A stretch of 64,000 nucleotides of DNA. It comes from an uncultured virus (IMG/VR IMGVR_UViG_3300043399_001317) (Duplodnaviria; Heunggongvirae; Uroviricota; Caudoviricetes). Below, one piece after another: positions 2,657-54,836 of this stretch. The number at the start of each line of letters is the position of its first letter. Position 1 is the stretch's first letter. A model generated the notes under the pieces. The model was not told the DNA's origin, made no database searches, and saw only the letters and a list, made by a program, of their open reading frames with translations. The stretch lies in the IMG/VR virus record IMGVR_UViG_3300043399_001317. The stretch is one strand, 5' to 3'. The position numbers and the translations under genes are program-made.

Positions 2657-3726
2657 TGAACGAAATAGAAAATAATGGAAACGGTACTGCGTACAACCCA
2701 GACATGAAATTTGATAACATTAATTCTTTTTTATTCTATCTTAAAAGTTTGGATGGCACCATAATGATAGACCCCAAATTTTTGGTTAAAAAAGAAGGTA
2801 TTATCCCGCAAGAAAAACCAATAGGTATTTCTTTAACCACACTGATAAAATATCTATCGGAGATAAAAGACAAACAAGATGAAAGAGATAACATAAATAA
2901 AGCCGACAAATATTTCATCAAGAACTTAAACAACATTGTTGACAAGGGTCATTGGGATATAAACCCAAGAGCTAAATATAGGGATGGCACTGATGCAAAC
3001 TCAAAATTTATTACCCAAGTATTTGAGGAGTACGATATAAGCAAAGGCGAATTTCCAATAACCACATTGAGGGATACTGCAATAACGATAGGAATAAGAG
3101 AAATTCTTTGGATATATCAAAAACAAACCTCATCTTTGCAAACAGCTTGGGAAATGGGTATTCATTGGTGGGATTCTTGGAACATAGGTGATGATACAAT
3201 AGGTCAAAGATATGGGGCAACCGTAAAGAAATGGGGTTTAATGGATAAACTCCTCGTATCTCTTATTAAAGAGCCTTTCTCAAGAAGGCATATTATGAAT
3301 ATGTATCAAGAACAAGACCTAATAGAAACAAAAGGTTTATTCCCTTGCGCATATGAAACAATATGGTCGGTAAGGAAGGATAAGGACGATAAACTTTTCT
3401 TAGATATGACATTGATACAAAGGAGTAACGATTATATTGTCGCTGGTTACATAAACAAAATACAATACGTTGCCCTTATGATGATGGTCGCCGGGCATTG
3501 CGGATATGAGGTGGGCAAATTCTGCCACTTAGTCCAGAACCTACATATCTATGACAGGCATATCCACGCAGCCCTTGAGATATTGAATAAAAAACCACTG
3601 GACATAAAACCAAAGATTGTGCTGAAACAAAAAAAGCATTTCTACGATTATACAATAGACGATTTTGAAATAATCAATACCGAAGGGATAAAGAAAATAA
3701 AATCGAAATTGGAACTTGGAATATAA
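2656..3726 (+). CDS. thyA: Thymidylate synthase
   Basis: FPITTLR, EILW, LFPCAY, QRSND, INKIQY, NLHIYDRH motifs; has an N-terminal extension. Confidence 0.95.
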   Translation: MNEIENNGNGTAYNPDMKFDNINSFLFYLKSLDGTIMIDPKFLVKKEGIIPQEKPIGISLTTLIKYLSEIKDKQDERDNINKADKYFIKNLNNIVDKGHWDINPRAKYRDGTDANSKFITQVFEEYDISKGEFPITTLRDTAITIGIREILWIYQKQTSSLQTAWEMGIHWWDSWNIGDDTIGQRYGATVKKWGLMDKLLVSLIKEPFSRRHIMNMYQEQDLIETKGLFPCAYETIWSVRKDKDDKLFLDMTLIQRSNDYIVAGYINKIQYVALMMMVAGHCGYEVGKFCHLVQNLHIYDRHIHAALEILNKKPLDIKPKIVLKQKKHFYDYTIDDFEIINTEGIKKIKSKLELGI

Positions 3727-3729
3727 TTT

Positions 3730-4167
3730 TTAAAGCATGAATTTTTTTATGGTTGTAATTGAAGAGGGGTCTTTTAACAAAGCCGAAAGCCCAAAATGTT
3801 TTGGTTTTAAGTTCATAAGGCCATCAAAATCCACCCATAAAAAATCGCTTGTTTCCCAGTTTAATTTTGGTTCAAACTCTTTGTCCAATACACCAATAAA
3901 ATTGTAATAAGTAAAATCTGCCTTATTACTTTCAAAAACAAACGCTTTATACAATGATACGTTACCGTAAAATTCTGTTTCTTCTGATAATTCGCGTAAA
4001 GCCGCTTCTGATGGCTTTAAATCGTCGTCATCAATTTTTCCTCCCCACACACCCCAAGTATTCGGTTCCATGACATAAGGGCTTCTAAGGGCTAATAAAG
4101 CCCTTTTTGTTGGTTCACAAATGGGTAATATTCCAGCGCCTCTGGTACCCCAAAAAACATTCGACAT
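3730..4167 (-). CDS. NUDIX hydrolase
   Basis: GGKIDDDDLKPSEAALRELSEETE Nudix box. Confidence 0.9.
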   Translation of the reverse strand: MSNVFWGTRGAGILPICEPTKRALLALRSPYVMEPNTWGVWGGKIDDDDLKPSEAALRELSEETEFYGNVSLYKAFVFESNKADFTYYNFIGVLDKEFEPKLNWETSDFLWVDFDGLMNLKPKHFGLSALLKDPSSITTIKKFML

Positions 4168-4714: not shown

Positions 4715-5743
4715 TTATTTTTGTTTTTCCCCGAGTAAAAAATTATTGCTTATCACTTTGAAGGATATTTTTCTGTCCAGTGAACGAACCACAATACCTT
4801 CCCTTTTAGCCATTGAATTATTTATTGCAGAAATACCGTCAGCCTGAACCAGCAGTTCGCTTATGGAATCCGGTAGCTTGTACGATTCATATATAATTGG
4901 CACAGTTTTCAATCCAAGGCTTTCAATGGTTTTCACAAAATTTTCAAAATCGTAATATTCTTGTTTATCGATATCAAAAACATTGTAGAAAAAAACATGT
5001 TGACCTTTTAGTTTGTAAATATTGCCTTGGATACCTTCTCCCACGAGTTCCCCTTGCAAACATATGTTTTTACCCAAACCAGCTAGCAAATTTTTGAGGT
5101 TAATTTCAGAAGCAACTTTCCAGAATGAATTTGTTTTACCACCTTCTTCGGGTTCTGAAAGTTCATAGTTTCTTGAACAAACACCGAAAACACCGTCTTT
5201 AAAATAAAAAGTTGCCGAACTACCATCCAGTTTCTCAGTAACATAGAAAGTTTTCTCCTTATACTTTTCATAAAAATTTGTGAGGTTCTGAATCCTTTCC
5301 TCATCTGTTTTAAAAAGGAAGGAAGGGAAACCACCTTTCATTTCACCGGACAATGATGCAGGAATGGGCGCTTCATATTTTACAATACCCAGCATTTCAG
5401 AAACATCCGTTCCGATTTCCATGTTAGAATTTTCTTCACCAATAATTTGGATAGGGAGGATAAGACCTTGGGATATTTGCCCAAGCATTTTAATTGTCCT
5501 CAATCTAAAACCCTCTTTATCCCCCATCTTTTTGTAAGAACTTTTCCTTAAAAATTCAAACTCATCCTTAATAGGTAAGAAAGAATCTATTTCACAGTAG
5601 ATGATTGAATCCCCAACTTTATGACCTACGTTTTTGGCCACTACTACCTTCCAACCATCAACCGTAGCCAATTCAATGGCGTCAGCTCCTTTAATTGGTT
5701 CAATTTTAGAAATTTTTCTAATTGTCGCTAATTTACGTTCCAT
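4715..5743 (-). CDS. RNA ligase, DRB0094/Rnl2-like family
   Basis: N-terminal RKLATIR..IEPI.GADAIE..V.GW; KTDEERIQN, TEKLDGSS, QGELVG, EGIV, FKVIS motifs. Confidence 0.9.
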   Translation of the reverse strand: MERKLATIRKISKIEPIKGADAIELATVDGWKVVVAKNVGHKVGDSIIYCEIDSFLPIKDEFEFLRKSSYKKMGDKEGFRLRTIKMLGQISQGLILPIQIIGEENSNMEIGTDVSEMLGIVKYEAPIPASLSGEMKGGFPSFLFKTDEERIQNLTNFYEKYKEKTFYVTEKLDGSSATFYFKDGVFGVCSRNYELSEPEEGGKTNSFWKVASEINLKNLLAGLGKNICLQGELVGEGIQGNIYKLKGQHVFFYNVFDIDKQEYYDFENFVKTIESLGLKTVPIIYESYKLPDSISELLVQADGISAINNSMAKREGIVVRSLDRKISFKVISNNFLLGEKQK

Positions 5744-12414: not shown

Positions 12415-12773
12415 CTTGCATAAATGGTTTTAAGGTTTCCACAATCTTTTATCAAAAATATTTCCCCTTCTTCGTTCGGTGTCGTCATTGAAAATGAGCA
12501 AATCACATTATCTTTATTCACACAAATATATTTTCTAACACCTTCAATTATATACCTTTGAGTAACGTTGTATGTTTCAACATCACCATTTTCAAAAGTT
12601 ACAGATAAGAAGTTTTGTGCCGGAACAAAAAATATAATGTGCGTTTCAAGTTTTGAAAAAGTATCCCTTTCGTATTTCCAGTTCGTTGAAACAAAAGTAG
12701 ACGTTTCGTACAGTGTTTGTGCGCAAGTAAAAACAGGTAAAAGTAAGAACAAGAAAATTTTAATTGTTTTCAT
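12411..12773 (-). CDS. Hypothetical exported protein
   Basis: Bacteroidota-style signal peptide MKTIKIFLFLLLPVFTCA-Q. Confidence 0.65.
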   Translation of the reverse strand: MKTIKIFLFLLLPVFTCAQTLYETSTFVSTNWKYERDTFSKLETHIIFFVPAQNFLSVTFENGDVETYNVTQRYIIEGVRKYICVNKDNVICSFSMTTPNEEGEIFLIKDCGNLKTIYAR

Positions 12774-15422: not shown

Positions 15423-15812
15423 TTACCTTTTTTCAATTTTGAATTCATCCAAAGAACAAATCTCCCCATCCCATCTTGGGAGTTCGCCTTCATAACCTTC
15501 GTATGGTTCATCCGTCCAACCGACAAAAGGTGCGCCCCAATAATTTTCTTCTGTATCAATTTCTGCGACAGGATAAGCCTCTTTGCCTTCAACATACCAA
15601 GTCCCATCGGAAATAAATTTATAATCAATCCTGATACACTTCCAATTTTTATTGGGAATAACCTCAACCATATCTGGCAACTCATATATTTTTGAGTTCT
15701 TAACCTCACAAACCATTTCATGCTGGGGTTGGTTTCTGAAAGAATATGAGGGGAAACAGATAATATCCCCATCTTTCCATTCACCGTAGTTTATTTTTGT
15801 TGTGTATTTCAT
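15423..15812 (-). CDS. Hypothetical protein
   Basis: 129-aa acidic/aromatic ORF. Confidence 0.65.
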   Translation of the reverse strand: MKYTTKINYGEWKDGDIICFPSYSFRNQPQHEMVCEVKNSKIYELPDMVEVIPNKNWKCIRIDYKFISDGTWYVEGKEAYPVAEIDTEENYWGAPFVGWTDEPYEGYEGELPRWDGEICSLDEFKIEKR

Positions 15813-47045: not shown

Positions 47046-47162
47046 GTTTTTAGTTTTTTATTGATACAAAGATAAAAGTTATTTTTCAAATAAGCAAATT
47101 TATTTCCAAATAAAAAACCTAATACCGTTAAGATATAAGGATTTTTTCTGGTTGTAAGGGGT

Positions 47163-47498
47163 TTATAGAAATACCTTCCTGTCACCCAGTTGCATGAAAG
47201 CCCCGCTCAGGTTGGCTTCGCTCATATTTGTCCCTCCGAAGGAAGCCTCTGTCAGATTTGCCCCTCCGAAGTCAGTCAGATATAAGTTAGCCTCTACAAG
47301 GTTTGCCCCGGTCAAGTCAGCATCGGTTAGGTTGGCCATGTATAGTGCAGCACTACTCAAGTCTACACCTTTCAGGTTTGCCCCAGTCAGGTCAGCCCAA
47401 ATTAATGTTGCTCTGGTCAGGTTTGCCCCGCTTAGGTCAACCCACCGAAAATCCCGCTGCCCGGCAGCGTAACGTCCCAATAGTTGTTCTGCTGTCAT
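47163..47498 (-). CDS. Pentapeptide-repeat protein
   Basis: MTAEQLLGRYAAGQRDF + repeats. Confidence 0.95.
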   Translation of the reverse strand: MTAEQLLGRYAAGQRDFRWVDLSGANLTRATLIWADLTGANLKGVDLSSAALYMANLTDADLTGANLVEANLYLTDFGGANLTEASFGGTNMSEANLSGAFMQLGDRKVFL

Positions 47499-47618
47499 AT
47501 ATTTTTTTATTTAGTGATTTAATAAGACAAAGATAAAGGTTATTTTGGAATAAACAAAAAAAAATGGGGACATTTTTAGTTGCCCCCATAAAAAAAAATA
47601 ATTCTGCTAAAACATATC

Positions 47619-48641
47619 TCAAAAAGCTAAACGTTGAAAATCTGGTCGTACCATGTCCCATATAGCTTGGGAGTAGTCTTTGCCGTCCATCATCTTAAAC
47701 AGTATGTGTTTCACGTCTGGATAATCAGATATTGCCTTTAAAGCAAAAGTTTTTCTATCCTCACAAAGAGGTTTTATAACATTGTAGGCATCAACAGCAG
47801 CTTTTTCGATTTCCAAATAATCCGCTGTTAATTTTTCTTTTACATTCCTTACAGAATTGTAAAATTCGTCTGGAACCCTATCCAATATCTCATCGAACGG
47901 CAAATTATCTTTCAAGTATTCCCATATGGTAACATTGGTAACGTTGGTTAATATCCTGTGCATACGCACATACCAATCACCTTTTACTTTTATTCTGAAA
48001 CCATTTGAGAAACGAATAGTATAACCTTCCCTGTTTTCCTCAATATTAGATGTGCAGAAAAGTTCCTCCAAGGTTTTATTTTCATACCTTTTAACAATAG
48101 TAAAACCCTTTGGTAAATCAGAATAGGGTAATTCTTTAGCGTCCTTTGTACGTATTGCGCCCAGTAGAACCAAATCTTCAAAATTATATTTACAAACTAT
48201 TCGATTCGTAGCATATATGATTTCAAACATATAGGTATATTCAGGGTTTAAGGAATCGTACAGATTCAGGGAATCCATCATTTCCTTTGCCCTTACAGCT
48301 TGTTCAGAAGTGAATGAACCCCTTGAGGATAAAATCCACTTGTTGTCGTAATAGAACAATATACCCAAGGAACCATCCATTTTCTCGAACACCTCAAAAG
48401 AAGTGTTTGGTATTTCTTCAGGGTTATGTTCCGAGAAGTTAAAGAACTTACCGAAAGGACGGGCAACAACAACATTACCATCCATAACCAAACCCCTACA
48501 AACCAAAGTTACATCGTCCCACAACTTTTCGTATTGCGTTTTAGGCGTGTAGTTATATATTTTGAGGTTAGGATATTCAGGGTGAACCTGATATTGCAAC
48601 AAACCCCTTTCCACATAACCTGCCAATATTTCCTCTCTCAT
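47619..48641 (-). CDS. T4 Rnl1-like RNA ligase
   Basis: CRGLV, ARPFGKFFN, EKMDGSLG, SRGSF, MFEII, EGY, KVK..WY. Confidence 0.9.
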   Translation of the reverse strand: MREEILAGYVERGLLQYQVHPEYPNLKIYNYTPKTQYEKLWDDVTLVCRGLVMDGNVVVARPFGKFFNFSEHNPEEIPNTSFEVFEKMDGSLGILFYYDNKWILSSRGSFTSEQAVRAKEMMDSLNLYDSLNPEYTYMFEIIYATNRIVCKYNFEDLVLLGAIRTKDAKELPYSDLPKGFTIVKRYENKTLEELFCTSNIEENREGYTIRFSNGFRIKVKGDWYVRMHRILTNVTNVTIWEYLKDNLPFDEILDRVPDEFYNSVRNVKEKLTADYLEIEKAAVDAYNVIKPLCEDRKTFALKAISDYPDVKHILFKMMDGKDYSQAIWDMVRPDFQRLAF

Positions 48642-48645
48642 GGTT

Positions 48646-49029
48646 TTATAATTTTATGTTAAACCTTTTTTGCATTTTCAACAAAGTCTCATCAGGAACG
48701 TCATGCACGTTTACACCACCATGCCTGTTTTCTACAATAAGAACAAACGTTTGGTAGTTATGTTCACTGGCCAAAGAAATATATCCGGCCATTTCTTTCT
48801 CGGTTGTAAAAGTATTCGACACTGCAATTTTGTCTTCACCAGACGTCATTGCATTTTCAACTTTTTTGTAACACCAGTCATGGGCTTCTTTCAATTTGTT
48901 AAATTGAAAGTTATACACACCATCCCGCATAAAGTACATGTCAGCCTCGAAGTGGGGACACCCCAGAGATTTTGCGAAGGTAGATTTCCCAGAACCGGGC
49001 AAGCCTCTAACAATATATAATATTTTCAT
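48646..49029 (-). CDS. P-loop kinase (AAA_33 / polynucleotide-kinase-like)
   Basis: RGLPGSGKST, FEADMYF, VSNTFT, NVHDVP. Confidence 0.85.
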   Translation of the reverse strand: MKILYIVRGLPGSGKSTFAKSLGCPHFEADMYFMRDGVYNFQFNKLKEAHDWCYKKVENAMTSGEDKIAVSNTFTTEKEMAGYISLASEHNYQTFVLIVENRHGGVNVHDVPDETLLKMQKRFNIKL

Positions 49030-49676
49030 ATGTGATGGTCTTCTGGTAGAACCAGATTTTTGATTTGTTTATTTTTAAGGATTTCAAAAACATCATCCAG
49101 TAGCATAGGTTTCAGGTCGTTCCCGTCGATTCCAATATCCATGTAACGTCCATCAGATACTCTCAGGTGTTTGGGCAGGTGTGTATGTCCGTGAAGGTGA
49201 AAAACTCCCTTTCCCATGTTAGGCCAAGAAGCAACCGGAAGATGTGAAATGAAAAACACTCGGGTTTTTTCATTAAACTTTCTTTCCAGTATCATTGTTT
49301 CGCTGACCGAAGAGAAAAGTTTTTGAACATCCTCTTTATTCTTTTCGATGTGGTGGTCATGATTCCCGAGAATTAAATGCACATTTTGGCAAACAATCCG
49401 ATTTCGGAATTCAATAATTTTTTCAAACCCCCCAAAGGAAAAGTCGCCCGCATGGATTAGGATATCATCCTGACCGACCACATTGTTTATGTTGTTAACA
49501 ATGTGGTCGTTCATTTGTTCAATGGTATCAAAATCCCTTGTTTTGGAACCATCCGGCCATGATGTTGTACCACGGCAAATGTTGGCATGTCCGTAATGAG
49601 TATCAGAACAAAGCCATATTTTTTTATCGTCTGAGAATTTCGTAATCTTGTTCATTTCATTCATTTTATAACACAA
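49026..49676 (-). CDS. Calcineurin-like phosphoesterase
   Basis: SDTHYGH, AGDF, GNHD, LHGHTH, DIGID. Confidence 0.9.
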   Translation of the reverse strand: MCYKMNEMNKITKFSDDKKIWLCSDTHYGHANICRGTTSWPDGSKTRDFDTIEQMNDHIVNNINNVVGQDDILIHAGDFSFGGFEKIIEFRNRIVCQNVHLILGNHDHHIEKNKEDVQKLFSSVSETMILERKFNEKTRVFFISHLPVASWPNMGKGVFHLHGHTHLPKHLRVSDGRYMDIGIDGNDLKPMLLDDVFEILKNKQIKNLVLPEDHHI

Positions 49677-49700
49677 AGATAAAGGTTATTTTTTAATTAT

Positions 49701-50171
49701 TCAATCAATGTCTGGATAAATTTTTCTTATTTTATTCGTTGCGATATTCACTTCCCAAAAGTCATTTATAAGGTATATGGTTGGACTAATTATTTTTATA
49801 GTTTCAGCAGTCTCATCTATATATTTTTCGAACAAAAACAAAGCATTGTTTAGTTTGTTTTTACTTATGGCGTCATTTTTTCTACTCCTTATTGGTTCGA
49901 AGTCACCATTTTTTTTAATTTCTTTAATTGTAGCGATGTAAAAAGGACATTGATAATCTATATTCACATTTAATTGTCTGGCCAAAATCCTTTCAACAGC
50001 TCTCAATAAAGATAGTAGTGTTTCATTTTTATTTTGAATGATTGCACTTTTTGTTTGACCTCGGATAGAACGCCTTTGTTCTGTACTGAATTTATCAGAG
50101 TAAATATCAGTTATTTCCATGATTAAACCCCCCGGACATTCAGATTGATAAATTTTTTTATTGGCCGTCAT
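49701..50171 (-). CDS. Hypothetical protein (N-terminus related to 60717..60977)
   Basis: Shared C.G.L..EI...Y...F...QRRS..G..K. Confidence 0.7.
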   Translation of the reverse strand: MTANKKIYQSECPGGLIMEITDIYSDKFSTEQRRSIRGQTKSAIIQNKNETLLSLLRAVERILARQLNVNIDYQCPFYIATIKEIKKNGDFEPIRSRKNDAISKNKLNNALFLFEKYIDETAETIKIISPTIYLINDFWEVNIATNKIRKIYPDID

Positions 50172-50289
50172 TTGTTTTTATTTTATTGATACAAAGATAA
50201 AGGTTATTTATCAAATAAGCAAATTTATTTTCAAATAAAAAACCCCATACCTTTATCTAGATATGGGGTTTTCATAGAGACAAATGGGT

Positions 50290-50544: not shown

Positions 50545-50628
50545 GATTAATTTATTTGTTAATTTAAAAAAGAAAGGCCAGAATGAAAACCTTCATCACT
50601 GACCTTACCAAAAACCTGAGAAAATTTG

Positions 50629-50703
50629 ATAATCCGGCCAGAATCGAACTAGCTGCCTCCCCAATGTCTGGAATAGGGCGCTCTACCAATGAGCTACGGA
50701 TTA
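50629..50703 (-). tRNA. Atypical tRNA with 10-nt anticodon loop (identity undetermined)
   Basis: Acceptor TAATCCG/CGGATTA, D arm GCTC/GAGC, stem CCCTA/TGGGG around TTCCAGACAT, T arm GCTAG-TTCGATT-CTGGC. Confidence 0.75.
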
Positions 50704-50779: not shown

Positions 50780-50793
50780 ATATTTCAAAAAAA

Positions 50794-50909
50794 GTGGGGG
50801 AGACCTAAACTCGATGAACTCATATGCGTACATACAAGCGCGAAAGCGGAAATGGACGTAATTGCAGCGGATAACGCAAACGCTGGGCGTCCTGAAGGTC
50901 AGCCCCCAC
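50794..50909 (-). ncRNA. Y-shaped ncRNA, family copy 1
   Basis: Closing GTGGGGG(CT)GACCT/AGGTC(T)CCCCCAC then T7; arm GGACG/CGTCC; arm with TACG tetraloop; own promoter. Confidence 0.7.
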
Positions 50910-50919
50910 AGCTTCTTTT

Positions 50920-50960
50920 CACTCAACAAAGATAAGAACTTTTTCAAATCTTGTCAAGTG
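50920..50960 (-). promoter_or_regulatory. Strong host-type promoter, repeated nearly identically across the RNA island
   Basis: Minus strand CTTGACAAGATTTGAAAAAGTTCTTATCTTTGTTG; copies near 51390, 51700, 51900 and variants near 52040, 52665. Confidence 0.85.
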
Positions 50961-50979
50961 TTTTTGAATATTTTTTTTG

Positions 50980-51108
50980 CGGTTGGGGCAGGATTCGAAC
51001 CTGCATCCATGTATCTGTAGCCCCAGAAGCTGACCCAGTTTTCCTCCATTATAGAGCAGCCTTTTTTCGGAGTTGGACCGGGGTGTCAACCAATTCCACC
51101 ACCCAACC
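50980..51108 (-). ncRNA. tRNA-like RNA with a 51-nt domain in place of the anticodon loop
   Basis: Acceptor GGTTGGG/CCCAACC, Leu-type D arm GTGGAATTGGTTGACAC, T arm GCAGG-TTCGAAT-CCTGC, long variable region; insert 51027-51077. Confidence 0.8.
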
Positions 51109-51122
51109 AATTTATTTTTTTT

Positions 51123-51272
51123 GACTCATGGCAGGACTCGAACCTGCATTTAACTGCGCAATTAAACCACATAGTCGCATTATATCATTATATGCTACTG
51201 GTCTTAGGTTCGACCGGGAGAGCTTATCCTACCTTCCCCTATGTGTGCGGCTACCCATTTCGCCACATGACC
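51123..51272 (-). ncRNA. tRNA-like RNA with a 64-nt three-hairpin domain in place of the anticodon loop
   Basis: Acceptor GGTCATG/CATGAGT (one mismatch), D arm GCG..CGC, stem CACATAG/CTATGTG, variable arm TTTAATT/AGTTAAA, T arm GCAGG-TTCGAGT-CCTGC. Confidence 0.8.
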
Positions 51273-51287
51273 CAAATTCGCAAAAAA

Positions 51288-51373
51288 GTGTGGGGGCTGG
51301 CCTTCAGCGAGTTGGTTCTATCCGTGGTCAACCGGACCCCCCATAGACAGCAAAAGCATACATCGCAGCCGTC
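51288..51373 (-). ncRNA. Candidate two-domain ncRNA
   Basis: Hairpin GACGGC/GCTGTC then a domain closed by TGGGGG/CCCCCA and a T tract; directly after a promoter. Confidence 0.5.
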
Positions 51374-51446
51374 TTTTCTTTCACCCAACAAAGATAAGAA
51401 CTTTTTCAAATCTTGTCAAGTGTTTTTGAATGTTTTTTTTAAAAAA

Positions 51447-51571
51447 GTGGGGGCGACCTTTGAATCGCGGAAGTCGGGCGCATATAAGCGCGAATGCGGA
51501 GATGGACGTTTTCGCTCAGTCGCCCCAAAAGGGGATACAAACTGGTGCATGTCCTGAAGGTCAGCCCCCAC
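51447..51571 (-). ncRNA. Y-shaped ncRNA, family copy 2
   Basis: Shares GAAGCTGTGGGGGCTGACCTTCAGGAC and ACGTCCATYTCCGCWTTCGCGCTTRTATG with copy 1. Confidence 0.7.
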
Positions 51572-51580
51572 AGCTTCTTT

Positions 51581-51682
51581 GTTGTCGGCGAGGAGTGGAC
51601 TTTTACCACAGCTAAGAGAGTTTTCTTTCTCTTTCGCAACCTCAAGTTAGGCTTGTGCATCTTGCACTACCCCGGCGACAAC
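51581..51682 (-). ncRNA. Candidate multi-branch ncRNA
   Basis: Closing GTTGTCG/CGACAAC; hairpins GTGCA/TGCAC, AGCCT/AGGTT, AGAGA/TCTCT; directly after a promoter. Confidence 0.6.
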
Positions 51683-51756
51683 TTTTCTTTTCACACAACA
51701 AAGATAAGAACTTTTTCAAATCTTGTCAAGTTTTTTCTTGTTTTTTTTTAAAAAAA

Positions 51757-51885
51757 GTGGGGGCGACCCTCTTTGCGGCGGAACCATCCGATTATATCGG
51801 TAGGCGGGGCCGTAAGACTATCTGCTGCGTTACGCTCTGGCCCCTTGAGACCAGCACAACAGGTTAAAGTAAAGTCAACCCCCAC
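51757..51885 (-). ncRNA. Y-shaped ncRNA, family copy 3 (divergent interior)
   Basis: Closing GTGGGGGTTGACTT/GGGTCGCCCCCAC; arms CTGTTG/CAGCAG (inner TGGTCT/GGGCCA) and CGGC/GCCG (inner CCGAT/ATCGG). Confidence 0.65.
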
Positions 51886-51956
51886 AGTTTCTTTTCACTC
51901 AACAAAGATAAGAACTTTTTCAAATCTTGTCAAGTGTTTTGTGATATTTTTTTTAG

Positions 51957-52703: not shown

Positions 52704-54836
52704 TTAGAAATTTATTTTCATAAATCTCGTATGTGTTCCCACAACCTTGACAACCAAAGAGTTCCGCATGGTGGCGTTGAACCCAAGACCAGCCAAACAT
52801 TTCTCAGAAGGCTTTATTTTCCTTATGTCGGACAGAATTTGGAGGGGCTTACGGAACTGCAAAAGTTCCCCAACCAAAAATTGGTTATGGAAGCTAGCAA
52901 GCGGCGCGTCCGGTTTGCAATTATCCAACATAAAGAAATAATGTTTGGTATCAAATTTGTTTTCACCCCAGTAGTTAGGGGAAAGTGAAACCAATTTCAC
53001 GGTATGAAAATCATTCAAGCTCAATCCCCAGACTTCGCGAGAGGTTTTATCCTCTTTAATAAAGCCTTGCACTTTGACAAACTCCCCGTTCTCAAATTCG
53101 ACCGTTGCTACCGTAACAGTCCCGGTCAGTTTTCCCTCATACACATACGTGTATGTTTCCCCGTTCAGATACAGTTCGGCACGGAACCCGTTGTGGTTTC
53201 TATCGTTGTAGTTGTTTACTTCAAATTTATATATACCATCAACAAGTTTTTCAGTAGATTCCCAGTATATGTTTTCAACTCCAACGGTAGTAGGGCTTCT
53301 CATGTCAACATCCAATTGACCTCCCATGGAAGTTTTGTTATATCCACCCCGGCTTTTTAGGAAATCAGAGCCGTAGTAGATATGCGTACCGTTCGGTTCC
53401 TTTGCGTGTGCATCCAAGTCTACAATATCGCCCCCGTTTTCATTCCAGATGATAGAGAATCGGAAGGGCGCGTCGACAAAACCGCCAGCCTTTTTAACCT
53501 CTTGTTTGATGGTTGATACCCCGGTAAGGCCGTTGATATACGTCCAGCCAAAGTTATTGTTCCATTTGAAGATACCCTTTTCGGCGTCAGAGGTATGCAA
53601 GGCCACAAAGTTTTCGGCGTGATTATGTTTGACCAATGCCTCAATTTTGGTAGCTTTTGGCAATACGTTGGACATAAATTCTCCAATTCCAATTTCAACA
53701 ACACCGTCAATTTTGGCTTTTCCGTGTCTTGTGGGTTTTTGACTAGGAACGTTGGCAAATAGCCCGACATTTTTTACCTTTCCGTCAACATTTTTGTGAT
53801 ATACCTCAGAAATGTTGATATCGGAAAGCGATGCAAAACGACGGTTGAAAGCCTCTAGGTAGCCCTTTTCTTCAATGAATTTTTCGGTTTCTACCTTCAT
53901 TTTTTCAGTGAAAATGGGTGTTTTAGAACGCATGAAGTTCGCAGGGTCTACCTTAACATTATACGAATGTACTGCATCGTCCAAATCCATGCCTTGAGAA
54001 AGGCTAACCAGAAGATTCCCAATGGATTCGTTGCGCAACTTCGCATAAGGCAGCGATTCGGCCACTTTCCAACAGAAGTTGGTTTTTTGGCTTTCAGAGA
54101 GCTGACCATATTCAGTCTTCAATTTGGCAATTTTGGCCAACTTATATACTTGTTGTTCTGAGTTTTTAACCGAGTCCTGCTCAATCAGTTCGATAACCAA
54201 TTCAATGGTATCAACGTCAACCTCCTCCATTAGGCGTTGGAACACCTCAGCAGGGGCACGTTTTTCGGTCATTAAGAACTCGGGAGACTTGTTTGAAAAA
54301 GAAAGGTTTTCCCGGTTCAGCATCACATGGAAATGATTGAATTCGTATGTTTTCCCCGCTGTTACCATGCCATACACAGCAGCTTCTTCTGGTGTGTACA
54401 CCTTCAACGTTCGTTCGTGGCCAAGTTGGAACAAGTTATCCCCCCTTTTTATTTTGCTATAAGGCATAGCATTCAGTACGTCAAACGTCTCAACAAAGGC
54501 ATCGACAACTTTTGCACCCTTAAAAAGGTCTTTGACCGCGTTTACGGCGTTAGCATACGGTTCGGGTGCGTCAAAATCAAAGAGGTGAACAATTTTATTT
54601 TCCTCATCGATTGCTACAACGTTGCCGTACCGACGAATGAAGTTGCGGTCGTGGTTGCAGTTGTGGTACGTCGATTCCGGGTGTCGGAACACCGGGTTTT
54701 CTTCAGCAGTGAATCCGTTGATGTAGGCATCCCAGATTTGGTCGCCCGTTACATCAACTCGGTAAAGTTTGCCAACTCGCTGCATATGCGAGAATTGGAT
54801 TTTTACCATTGAATTGAAATTTAGAAATGTTATCAT
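52704..54836 (-). CDS. Large hypothetical phage protein with DUF2135/YfaP-like domain
   Basis: HNCNHD near the N-terminus; W.....VDLDAH..EP.G.HIYY, GGQLDVDM, VENIYW. Confidence 0.7.
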   Translation of the reverse strand: MITFLNFNSMVKIQFSHMQRVGKLYRVDVTGDQIWDAYINGFTAEENPVFRHPESTYHNCNHDRNFIRRYGNVVAIDEENKIVHLFDFDAPEPYANAVNAVKDLFKGAKVVDAFVETFDVLNAMPYSKIKRGDNLFQLGHERTLKVYTPEEAAVYGMVTAGKTYEFNHFHVMLNRENLSFSNKSPEFLMTEKRAPAEVFQRLMEEVDVDTIELVIELIEQDSVKNSEQQVYKLAKIAKLKTEYGQLSESQKTNFCWKVAESLPYAKLRNESIGNLLVSLSQGMDLDDAVHSYNVKVDPANFMRSKTPIFTEKMKVETEKFIEEKGYLEAFNRRFASLSDINISEVYHKNVDGKVKNVGLFANVPSQKPTRHGKAKIDGVVEIGIGEFMSNVLPKATKIEALVKHNHAENFVALHTSDAEKGIFKWNNNFGWTYINGLTGVSTIKQEVKKAGGFVDAPFRFSIIWNENGGDIVDLDAHAKEPNGTHIYYGSDFLKSRGGYNKTSMGGQLDVDMRSPTTVGVENIYWESTEKLVDGIYKFEVNNYNDRNHNGFRAELYLNGETYTYVYEGKLTGTVTVATVEFENGEFVKVQGFIKEDKTSREVWGLSLNDFHTVKLVSLSPNYWGENKFDTKHYFFMLDNCKPDAPLASFHNQFLVGELLQFRKPLQILSDIRKIKPSEKCLAGLGFNATMRNSLVVKVVGTHTRFMKINF

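Follow-up and report, generated by a model that had tools for sequence, protein, structure and literature searches.

RNAs that resemble tRNAs and have other jobs are known, among them tmRNA, the Y RNA-like RNAs and viral tRNA-like ends. Phage T4 carries its stable RNAs C and D (species 1 and 2) within a tRNA cluster and also has a polynucleotide kinase and RNA ligase 1. The group I intron in tRNA-Leu(UAA) is self-splicing, measures about 200 nt or more and splits the UAA anticodon. In the engineered tRNA scaffold of Ponchon and Dardel, as set out in the description of its design (PMC3753655), the acceptor, T and D arms are kept while the anticodon stem-loop becomes a hairpin-closed insertion site; the rationale given there is that cellular tRNA enzymes will process the product and that it will be shielded from decay, and the scaffold works in bacteria. 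The main text of Devoto et al. 2019 (PMC6784885) terms the tRNA introns of Lak megaphages 'enigmatic', one insert being cloverleaf-like and possibly encoding a tRNA. YrlA, a bacterial Y RNA-like RNA (RF02553; PMC4201824), is non-coding, imitates a portion of a tRNA and occurs in phages too.

The RNA described here, W1, is encoded in the window, the whole 64,000-nucleotide stretch of DNA that was analysed, which is phage-like, has a G+C content of 35% and carries many pentapeptide-repeat genes. An earlier note, made from the sequence of this DNA, had placed W1 exactly; the gene lies on the minus strand, its RNA reading 5' to 3' from position 51272 to 51123. The positions of its elements, and those of the related and neighboring features, are collected in Table 1. 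The acceptor stem of W1 is paired at six of seven positions, one pair being G.U, and has a G2.G71 mismatch. The discriminator is C73 (51123), and CCA is not encoded. U8 and G9 follow the 5' acceptor strand, A26 stands between the D arm and the closing stem, and U48 precedes the T arm. All positions of the tRNA tertiary core are found in W1 and in its neighbor W2, namely U8, A14, A15 with U48, G18G19, A21, G53-C61 and the T loop.

Table 1. Elements of W1, members of the tRNA-framed family and neighboring features (window positions unless a contig is named)
Feature	Position	Strand	Description and basis
W1	51123..51272	minus	150-nt tRNA-framed RNA; sequence, MFE fold, ARAGORN intron mode, frame common to seven other RNAs
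W1 acceptor, 5' strand	51266..51272	minus	GGUCAUG; partner CAUGAGU at 51124-51130
W1 D arm	51247..51263	minus	GCG, 11-nt loop with GGG, CGC; 3-bp stem; identical to tRNA-Leu(UAA) D arm
W1 closing stem, 5' strand	51239..51245	minus	CACAUAG; 7 bp with CUAUGUG at 51168-51174
W1 core	51175..51238	minus	64 nt; hairpins 1, 2 and 3 at 51216-51238, 51200-51215 and 51177-51195
W1 variable arm	51149..51166	minus	long hairpin UUUAAUU-GCGC-AGUUAAA; 7 bp; sequence and MFE fold
W1 T arm	51131..51147	minus	GCAGG-UUCGAGU-CCUGC; identical to T arm of tRNA-Leu(UAA) gene L079
W2	50980-51108	minus	129-nt tRNA-framed RNA, 14 nt downstream of W1; homologs A and F
Member A	L122:5202-5333	minus	132 nt; frame member, W2 core type
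Member B	L122:4929-5027	minus	99 nt; frame member
Member C	L123:681-760	plus	80 nt; frame member, tiny core
Member D	L123:934-1005	plus	72 nt; frame member, tiny core
Member E	L123:3188-3344	plus	157 nt; frame member
Member F	L123:3981-4111	plus	131 nt; frame member, W2 core type
Promoter-like site P4	51391..51419	minus	TTGACA-17-TATCTT; nearest upstream of W1 and W2
Leader RNA D	51282..51384	minus	between P4 and W1; ends GGGGGG...CCCCC, then U run
Metallophosphoesterase	49026-49676	minus	Pfam, PHROGs, NCBIfam
P-loop polynucleotide-kinase-like protein	48646-49029	minus	Pfam, PHROGs, NCBIfam
Rnl1-type RNA ligase	47619-48641	minus	Pfam, PHROGs, NCBIfam

The MFE fold of W1 recovers every listed element (acceptor, D arm, closing stem, core, variable arm and T arm), with core hairpin stems GGGA/UCCC, GGUC/GACC and GCAU../..AUGC. 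It thereby confirms the anatomy given in the earlier note, which comprised a tRNA-like acceptor with one mismatch, a D arm, a long variable arm, a T arm, and a 7-bp stem CACATAG/CTATGTG with three hairpins (GGGA/TCCC, GGTC/GACC and GCAT/ATGC). Folded alone, the stem-closed core reaches -21.1 kcal/mol (z = -2.28; 5 of 200 shuffles fold as well); the whole RNA has a z of only -1.43. The contact that the note had also proposed between loops 1 and 2 (TAGG/CCTA) is not supported: UAGG/CCUA is a complementarity of 4 nt, which by our own arithmetic would arise in about 1 in 5 cases by chance between loops of 15 and 8 nt, and the substitution U67G of a variant haplotype breaks the A43-U67 pair uncompensated.

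The motif UAUAAUG occurs in the cores of both W1 and W2 (window 51176-51191 and 51048-51056, minus strand), in W1 as the tandem AUAUAAUG AUAUAAUG, with the DNA reading TGnTATAAT. In homolog A of W2 it is replaced by UAUGAUG and is therefore not strictly kept. TATAAT within both cores was considered as an internal promoter and set aside, the motif being altered in A.

Outside the anticodon region, W1 has the features of a decoding tRNA: a 7-bp acceptor stem, a D arm with G18G19 and a T arm with a UUCRANY loop. The anticodon arm of a decoding tRNA has a 5-bp stem, a 7-nt loop, U33 and a purine at position 37, whereas in W1 a 7-bp stem closes 64 nt. With this core in place of the anticodon loop, W1 would be unable to read codons. 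ARAGORN in its default mode made neither a tRNA nor a tmRNA call at W1, and the Rfam search gave only a partial match to the tRNA model (RF00005), in the wrong register and at 18.8 bits against a gathering score of 29; W1 found no full-length match in Rfam to an already described RNA family, a match that would have told against the reading of the earlier note. With introns allowed, ARAGORN accepts the tRNA frame that the note had recognised, as Arg(GCG) with a 59-nt intron, and calls W2 as Leu(CAG) with a 42-nt intron. W2 scores 36.6 bits on the Rfam tRNA model, above threshold only when 73 nt are skipped as an insert. Two further readings of W1 were discarded: the mitochondrial modes of ARAGORN found no nested mini-tRNA in the core, and the 'Leu(UAA)' that ARAGORN reads in the 3' half at a low threshold folds poorly and has to compete with far more stable stems.

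The D arm (18/18) and T arm (17/17) of W1 are identical to those of the cellular tRNA-Leu(UAA) gene L079. In species genomes, the 18-mer of the W1 D arm has 66 matches, 64 of them outside tRNA genes and the other two in tRNA-Leu(UAA) genes (L037 and L079); that of W2 has a single match in IMG/VR, likewise in a tRNA-Leu(UAA). A73 is carried by the tRNA-Leu genes L037, L079 and L098, where W1 has C73 and W2 G73, and no register of W1 or W2, by sequence or in ARAGORN, restores a Leu(UAA) loop. Judged by its arms, the body of W1 is of the tRNA-Leu(UAA) type. The resemblance of the frame goes far beyond chance, given the identity of its D and T arms to those of L079 and its recurrence in seven other RNAs with compensatory changes.

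The earlier note had missed the strand, the Leu(UAA)-type body, the second gene W2 and the family to which both genes belong. Using an 18-mer from the W2 core, a scan of IMG/VR returned 15 matches, among them two true homologs on the phage contigs L122 (G001) and L123 (G002), and eight RNAs in three lineages (the window and these two contigs) share the frame. Its consensus consists of an acceptor RGUCAKG/CMUGASY, a UG linker, a D arm GCG-RAAU...CGC and a T arm RCAGG-UUCRARU-CCUGY, with the W2 frame as a further diverged version. Over the eight members, 98.3% of the cells of 15 frame pairs are paired and six of these pairs change on both sides; none of 500 shuffles matches this pairing and covariation, and slid controls pair in only 28-40% of cells. 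One compensatory change is specific to W1, where acceptor pair 6-67 is U-A, as against G-C in the seven other members.

The cores carried on this frame are fully different among W1, W2/A/F, B, C, D and E, which makes six or more unrelated types, with cores of some 20-110 nt in RNAs of 72-157 nt, and members with the same frame have no anticodon stem in common. The core of E resembles that of W1 in layout, an 8-bp stem closing a multi-hairpin domain. Within the W2/A/F type, two blocks, of 20 and 23 nt, do not vary across the three lineages, while the frames of the same RNAs change on both sides in 3/7 acceptor, 1/3 D-stem and 1/5 T-stem pairs; a fourth, partial W2-type copy in sequencing run X15 shows the same T-stem switch from G-C to A-U. 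The invariant core blocks, set against compensating frame pairs, show that sequence is constrained in at least one type of core and that what persists in the frame is its structure. An H-type pseudoknot that GGCUG and CAGCU might form in W2 was rejected, its 5' strand being replaced in A, F and the X15 copy.

For the core of W1 itself, no homolog was found in GenBank phages and no Rfam match at E<=10. Exact patterns run against IMG/VR (W1 core, D arm plus T arm, promoter, sRNA motif) gave no W1 homolog and two unrelated matches, the 3' part of the frame occurs in 0 of 401 genomes drawn from the phylum of G003, and no insert-bearing tRNA of the W1/W2 kind lies in the 29 loci around relatives of the 710-aa neighbor gene. 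Since the W1 core is without a homolog, it offers no covariation; the comparison of homologs that the earlier note had in mind thus yields a compensated frame in eight members and says nothing of this core.

On L123, the tRNA-framed RNAs are bordered by repeated gene fragments (600-655 versus 3428-3475 and 3533-3570 versus 3873-3912), with the gene of a T5orf172 nuclease (2291-2782) in their midst, which suggests that the cassettes move or duplicate by recombination. Besides this nuclease, L123 encodes a protein that bears a sorting domain of type IX secretion, and the window promoters fit the TTG...TAnnTTTG pattern of Bacteroidota; together these suggest Bacteroidota hosts. A DNA methylase is common to L122 and the window.

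W1 sits in a 1.5-kb stretch of the minus strand that holds only RNA genes. Six near-identical promoter-like sites (TTGACA-17-TATCTT) lie on this strand between 50500 and 52750, and five of them are predicted to head, in order, units of tRNA-Glu; sRNA A; sRNAs B and C; leader D, W1 and W2; and sRNA E, tRNA-Pro and an odd tRNA. The sRNAs A, C and E (window 51750-51887, 51441-51574 and 50787-50912, minus strand; about 125-135 nt, predicted to be promoter-driven) share a 5' GUGGGGG that pairs with a 3' CCCCCAC followed by a U run, and match no Rfam family; C and E are paralogs, and A and E are conserved in a metagenome relative, L012. sRNA B (window 51581-51682, minus strand; 102 nt), closed by a 10-bp stem (GUUGUCGCCG/CGCCGACAAC), is present in the window and absent from L012, and has no Rfam match. 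The odd tRNA (window 50628-50703, minus strand) is of class I, scores 47.4 bits in Rfam and has extra anticodon-loop bases; ARAGORN calls it Leu(CAG) with a 6-bp stem, a U.U mismatch and C33, and L012 keeps it with a single difference. An ordinary tRNA-Leu is missing from the window, whose commonest leucine codons are UUA and UUG. A search of the window for antisense targets of W1 gave a longest complementarity of 11-12 nt, which is the shuffle level, and no partner.

Directly downstream of the RNA array come an 84-aa gene, an orphan 156-aa gene and the repair genes. By their family assignments, the phosphoesterase, the kinase and the Rnl1-type ligase form a complete heal-and-seal set; beside them, no splicing endonuclease was recognised. 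The 156-aa protein has no family and no relatives, and its predicted model is too poor to use (pLDDT 36). Far from the Rnl1-type enzyme lies another RNA ligase, which is of the DRB0094/PHA02142 type (window 4715-5743, minus strand), so that the phage has two RNA ligases. The 710-aa protein (window 52704-54836, minus strand) belongs to phrog_1735, with no Pfam, NCBIfam or PDB relative, and its relatives repeatedly adjoin tRNA genes or arrays in phage contigs L003, L004 and L006-L010. Of these, L007 is a distant relative with 29 tRNA genes; it also holds a 127-nt RNA (12580-12706) to which the tmRNA model gives 68.6 bits (over its full span, most of it deleted) and, at about 15622-15760, a 140-nt element with an acceptor stem and a T arm and without an ordinary middle.

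In L012, whose 710-aa neighbor protein is 85% identical, the same array is found minus two blocks. One comprises the RNA cassettes B/C and D/W1/W2 (window ~51685..50978), and the other is a 3-kb segment (~50193..47144) with the 156-aa gene, the phosphoesterase, the kinase, Rnl1 and a pentapeptide gene. The W1/W2 cassette is accessory; its link to the repair genes is only a hint, coming as it does from this single comparison.

The stretch or parts of it are present in public sequencing runs of 14 studies, four of which (runs X4, X15, X16 and X17) were compared; parts of the stretch uncovered in RNA-labelled runs were left out of the evidence. A contig of the DNA run X4 spans W1 and W2 with the inserts in place. 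Both inserts are equally in place in a 393-nt contig of X16, a metatranscriptome-labelled run, which covers 50949-51297, and in the second RNA-labelled run, X17, two short contigs cover parts of W1 and W2. Unspliced sequence is hence present in RNA-labelled libraries, whose contigs may reflect DNA carry-over or primary transcripts and show neither ends nor levels. No joint that skips an insert occurs in the four runs, the sole joint, in X15, being a cassette deletion of the L012 type. A variant haplotype has five substitutions, all in the W1 and W2 cores and none in the frames. Those of W1 (G62U, U67G and A71G) all fall in hairpin 2, where U60-A71 becomes U.G and a new U62-A69 pair arises; the fold is kept, at -20.9 versus -21.1 kcal/mol. 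In the X4 haplotype, leader RNA D is heavily diverged, with W1 and W2 nearly unchanged.

With middling confidence, we read W1 as an unspliced, non-decoding RNA on a leucine-tRNA frame, cotranscribed from P4 with leader D and W2, in which the frame carries and the core works. P4 would transcribe the leader, W1 and W2 together, and host RNase P and 3'-end nucleases, guided by the intact frame of acceptor, T arm and D arm, would cut W1 out of this transcript. The CCA-adding enzyme would then finish it to a discrete, stable, L-shaped RNA of 150 nt, whose stem-closed core would present a folded module specific to this member. The frame would accordingly act as a carrier, serving processing, stability and possibly contact with tRNA-binding proteins, and the core would be the working part; we infer processing and stability for W1, and a specific partner for its core. 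In view of the RNA repair genes nearby, the most likely field of action for W1 is the conflict of phage and host over tRNAs. A wider and more doubtful reading, which we offer tentatively, is that phages, probably of Bacteroidota, carry a natural modular tRNA scaffold, a single leucine-tRNA frame that host enzymes would cut out and stabilize and whose modules would be swapped by recombination, the W1 core being one module acting in tRNA conflict alongside the repair enzymes. Several observations weigh against our preferred reading: the W1 core has no homolog and the z of the whole RNA is low, the placing of all five close-haplotype substitutions in cores also fits cores that matter less than the frame, and the tiny cores of members C and D look more like damaged anticodon arms than cargo.

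Other known classes were considered and rejected. A group I intron in tRNA-Leu(UAA) does not fit an insert of 64 nt with no group I match at E<=10 and no split CUUAAAA loop. For a Lak-type intron, the only reading is Arg(GCG) on a Leu-type body, and there is no insert-free allele, L012 being without the whole gene. W1 has U3-A70 and a D stem and matches tmRNA in neither ARAGORN nor Rfam, and a short frame in A and F that might have served as a tmRNA tag is not kept in W2. As for self-cleaving ribozymes and riboswitches, an Rfam search of 316 nt gave only tRNA and noise at E<=10.

In one rival account the frame alone matters, W1 being a pure decoy or sponge whose tRNA-Leu body binds a host factor, such as a tRNA-cutting or end-modifying defense enzyme or a synthetase, with a bulky core that blocks cleavage and the ribosome. 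Strictly kept frames with highly variable cores agree with it, as do the substitutions of the close haplotype (5/5 in cores), the odd tRNA with its irregular anticodon arm in the same array, and an accessory cassette lying 800 nt from the heal-and-seal set and gained or lost together with it in the one available comparison. Mere filler, however, would not show the pattern of the W2/A/F type, whose core sequence is more conserved than the frame helices across three lineages; moreover, the A73 of the three tRNA-Leu genes is missing in W1 and W2, and no defense gene or target is known. We consider the decoy unlikely. Another rival takes the genes for functionless copies of a phage tRNA-Leu gene that are decaying after insertions and deletions hit the anticodon region. 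It would explain the very different core lengths, some of them truncated (C and D), the repeated flanks and T5orf172 nuclease gene near the L123 copies, which indicate duplication and shuffling, and the dispensability of the cassette in L012. Such decay is nevertheless highly improbable when compensatory changes keep the frames paired, three lineages conserve one type of core, W1 and W2 hardly differ in a haplotype whose neighboring leader D has diverged heavily, and a strong repeated promoter is predicted ahead of each cassette.

W1 might also be an intron-bearing tRNA, from which an endonuclease would excise the core and whose halves the phosphoesterase, kinase and Rnl1 would heal and seal into a working tRNA. 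The intron-mode calls for W1 and W2 point this way, as do the complete heal-and-seal set that adjoins the cassette and co-varies with it, the window's want of an ordinary tRNA-Leu despite its codon usage, and the unexplained tRNA introns reported in the main text on Lak megaphages (PMC6784885). Yet in the solution for W1, an anticodon for Arg falls on a body of the class II Leu type, the stem being 6 bp long and the acceptor 8 bp, and a Leu(UAA) loop arises in no register. For W2, the solution relies on a distal CUGGGG, which is GUAGAG in A and F, and the conserved pairing CCGGU/ACUGG falls inside the supposed intron. In 29 loci of relatives, the intron mode gave ten calls that span adjacent tRNAs or long-armed tRNAs, which we read as artefacts. 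No archaeal- or eukaryal-type bulge-helix-bulge (BHB) is anchored on the anticodon or closing stem, a relaxed search matching 168 and 152 of 200 shuffles and hence performing at chance; neither a group I intron nor a ribozyme matches at E<=10; and the missing insert-skipping joints and the absence of a common anticodon stem among frame members argue in the same direction. An intron-bearing tRNA is thus improbable. The interpretation offered in the earlier note is supported in part. A natural tRNA-scaffolded RNA as opposed to a classical intron is supported, with at least six unrelated cores in three lineages behind it; the data fit the note's decoy and its stabilized functional module alike; its protein-spliced intron is disfavored, as no canonical anticodon loop can be rebuilt, neither a BHB nor a spliced joint is found and the intron model for W2 fails in the homologs.

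We found no constant-frame, variable-core family in Rfam or GenBank phages, and a full-text literature search, which covered main texts, returned no natural tRNA-like family of this kind (Table S6 of Devoto et al. may hold comparable inserts). The pertinent parts of a paper on cyanobacterial tRNA arrays (PMC8421152) and of a survey of viral structured RNAs (PMC10690425) contain nothing like the W1 family.

A natural phage gene family in which one tRNA frame carries many cores found no precedent in these searches, and the importance of W1 lies mainly in this family, which suggests that the shape of a tRNA serves phages to carry other RNA functions. If true, this would provide a rule by which to search for hidden non-coding RNAs of phages, those that tRNA finders throw out, natural and host-adapted RNA carriers, and an RNA layer in the struggle of phage and host over tRNAs.

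Compared with the known systems, W1 resembles the T4 RNAs C and D, going by their general descriptions, as a small, putatively stable RNA encoded in a phage tRNA cluster alongside a polynucleotide-kinase-like protein and an RNA ligase of the Rnl1 type; to our knowledge, the T4 RNAs are not a family with a constant frame and variable cores. Like tmRNA (RF00023), W1 has a tRNA-derived acceptor and T arm, with a larger domain in place of the anticodon arm, and is not a usual decoder, but it is without G3.U70, keeps a full D stem and variable arm, and lacks a conserved tag frame. The ends of YrlA make up its Ro-binding stem, with the tRNA-like part inside the molecule, whereas the ends of W1 form the acceptor stem; RF02553 matches neither W1 nor W2, its sole weak match spanning two ordinary neighboring tRNAs. 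The Lak inserts, as presented in the main text of their description, are like that of W1 in being short, lying in the anticodon region and not being group I introns; they differ in having assignable anticodons and insert-free alleles, while W1 and W2 have no credible anticodon loop, no insert-free allele was found for them, and one frame bears many cores. The engineered scaffold, so far as its published design goes, was built in the laboratory on the frame of human tRNA-Lys3 or E. coli tRNA-Met, whereas the W1 family is natural, its frame is of class II and Leu-type with a long variable arm, and its processing is putative. With the same acceptor, T and D arms kept, a foreign module closed by a stem and different modules on one frame, W1 nonetheless finds in this scaffold its closest working model.
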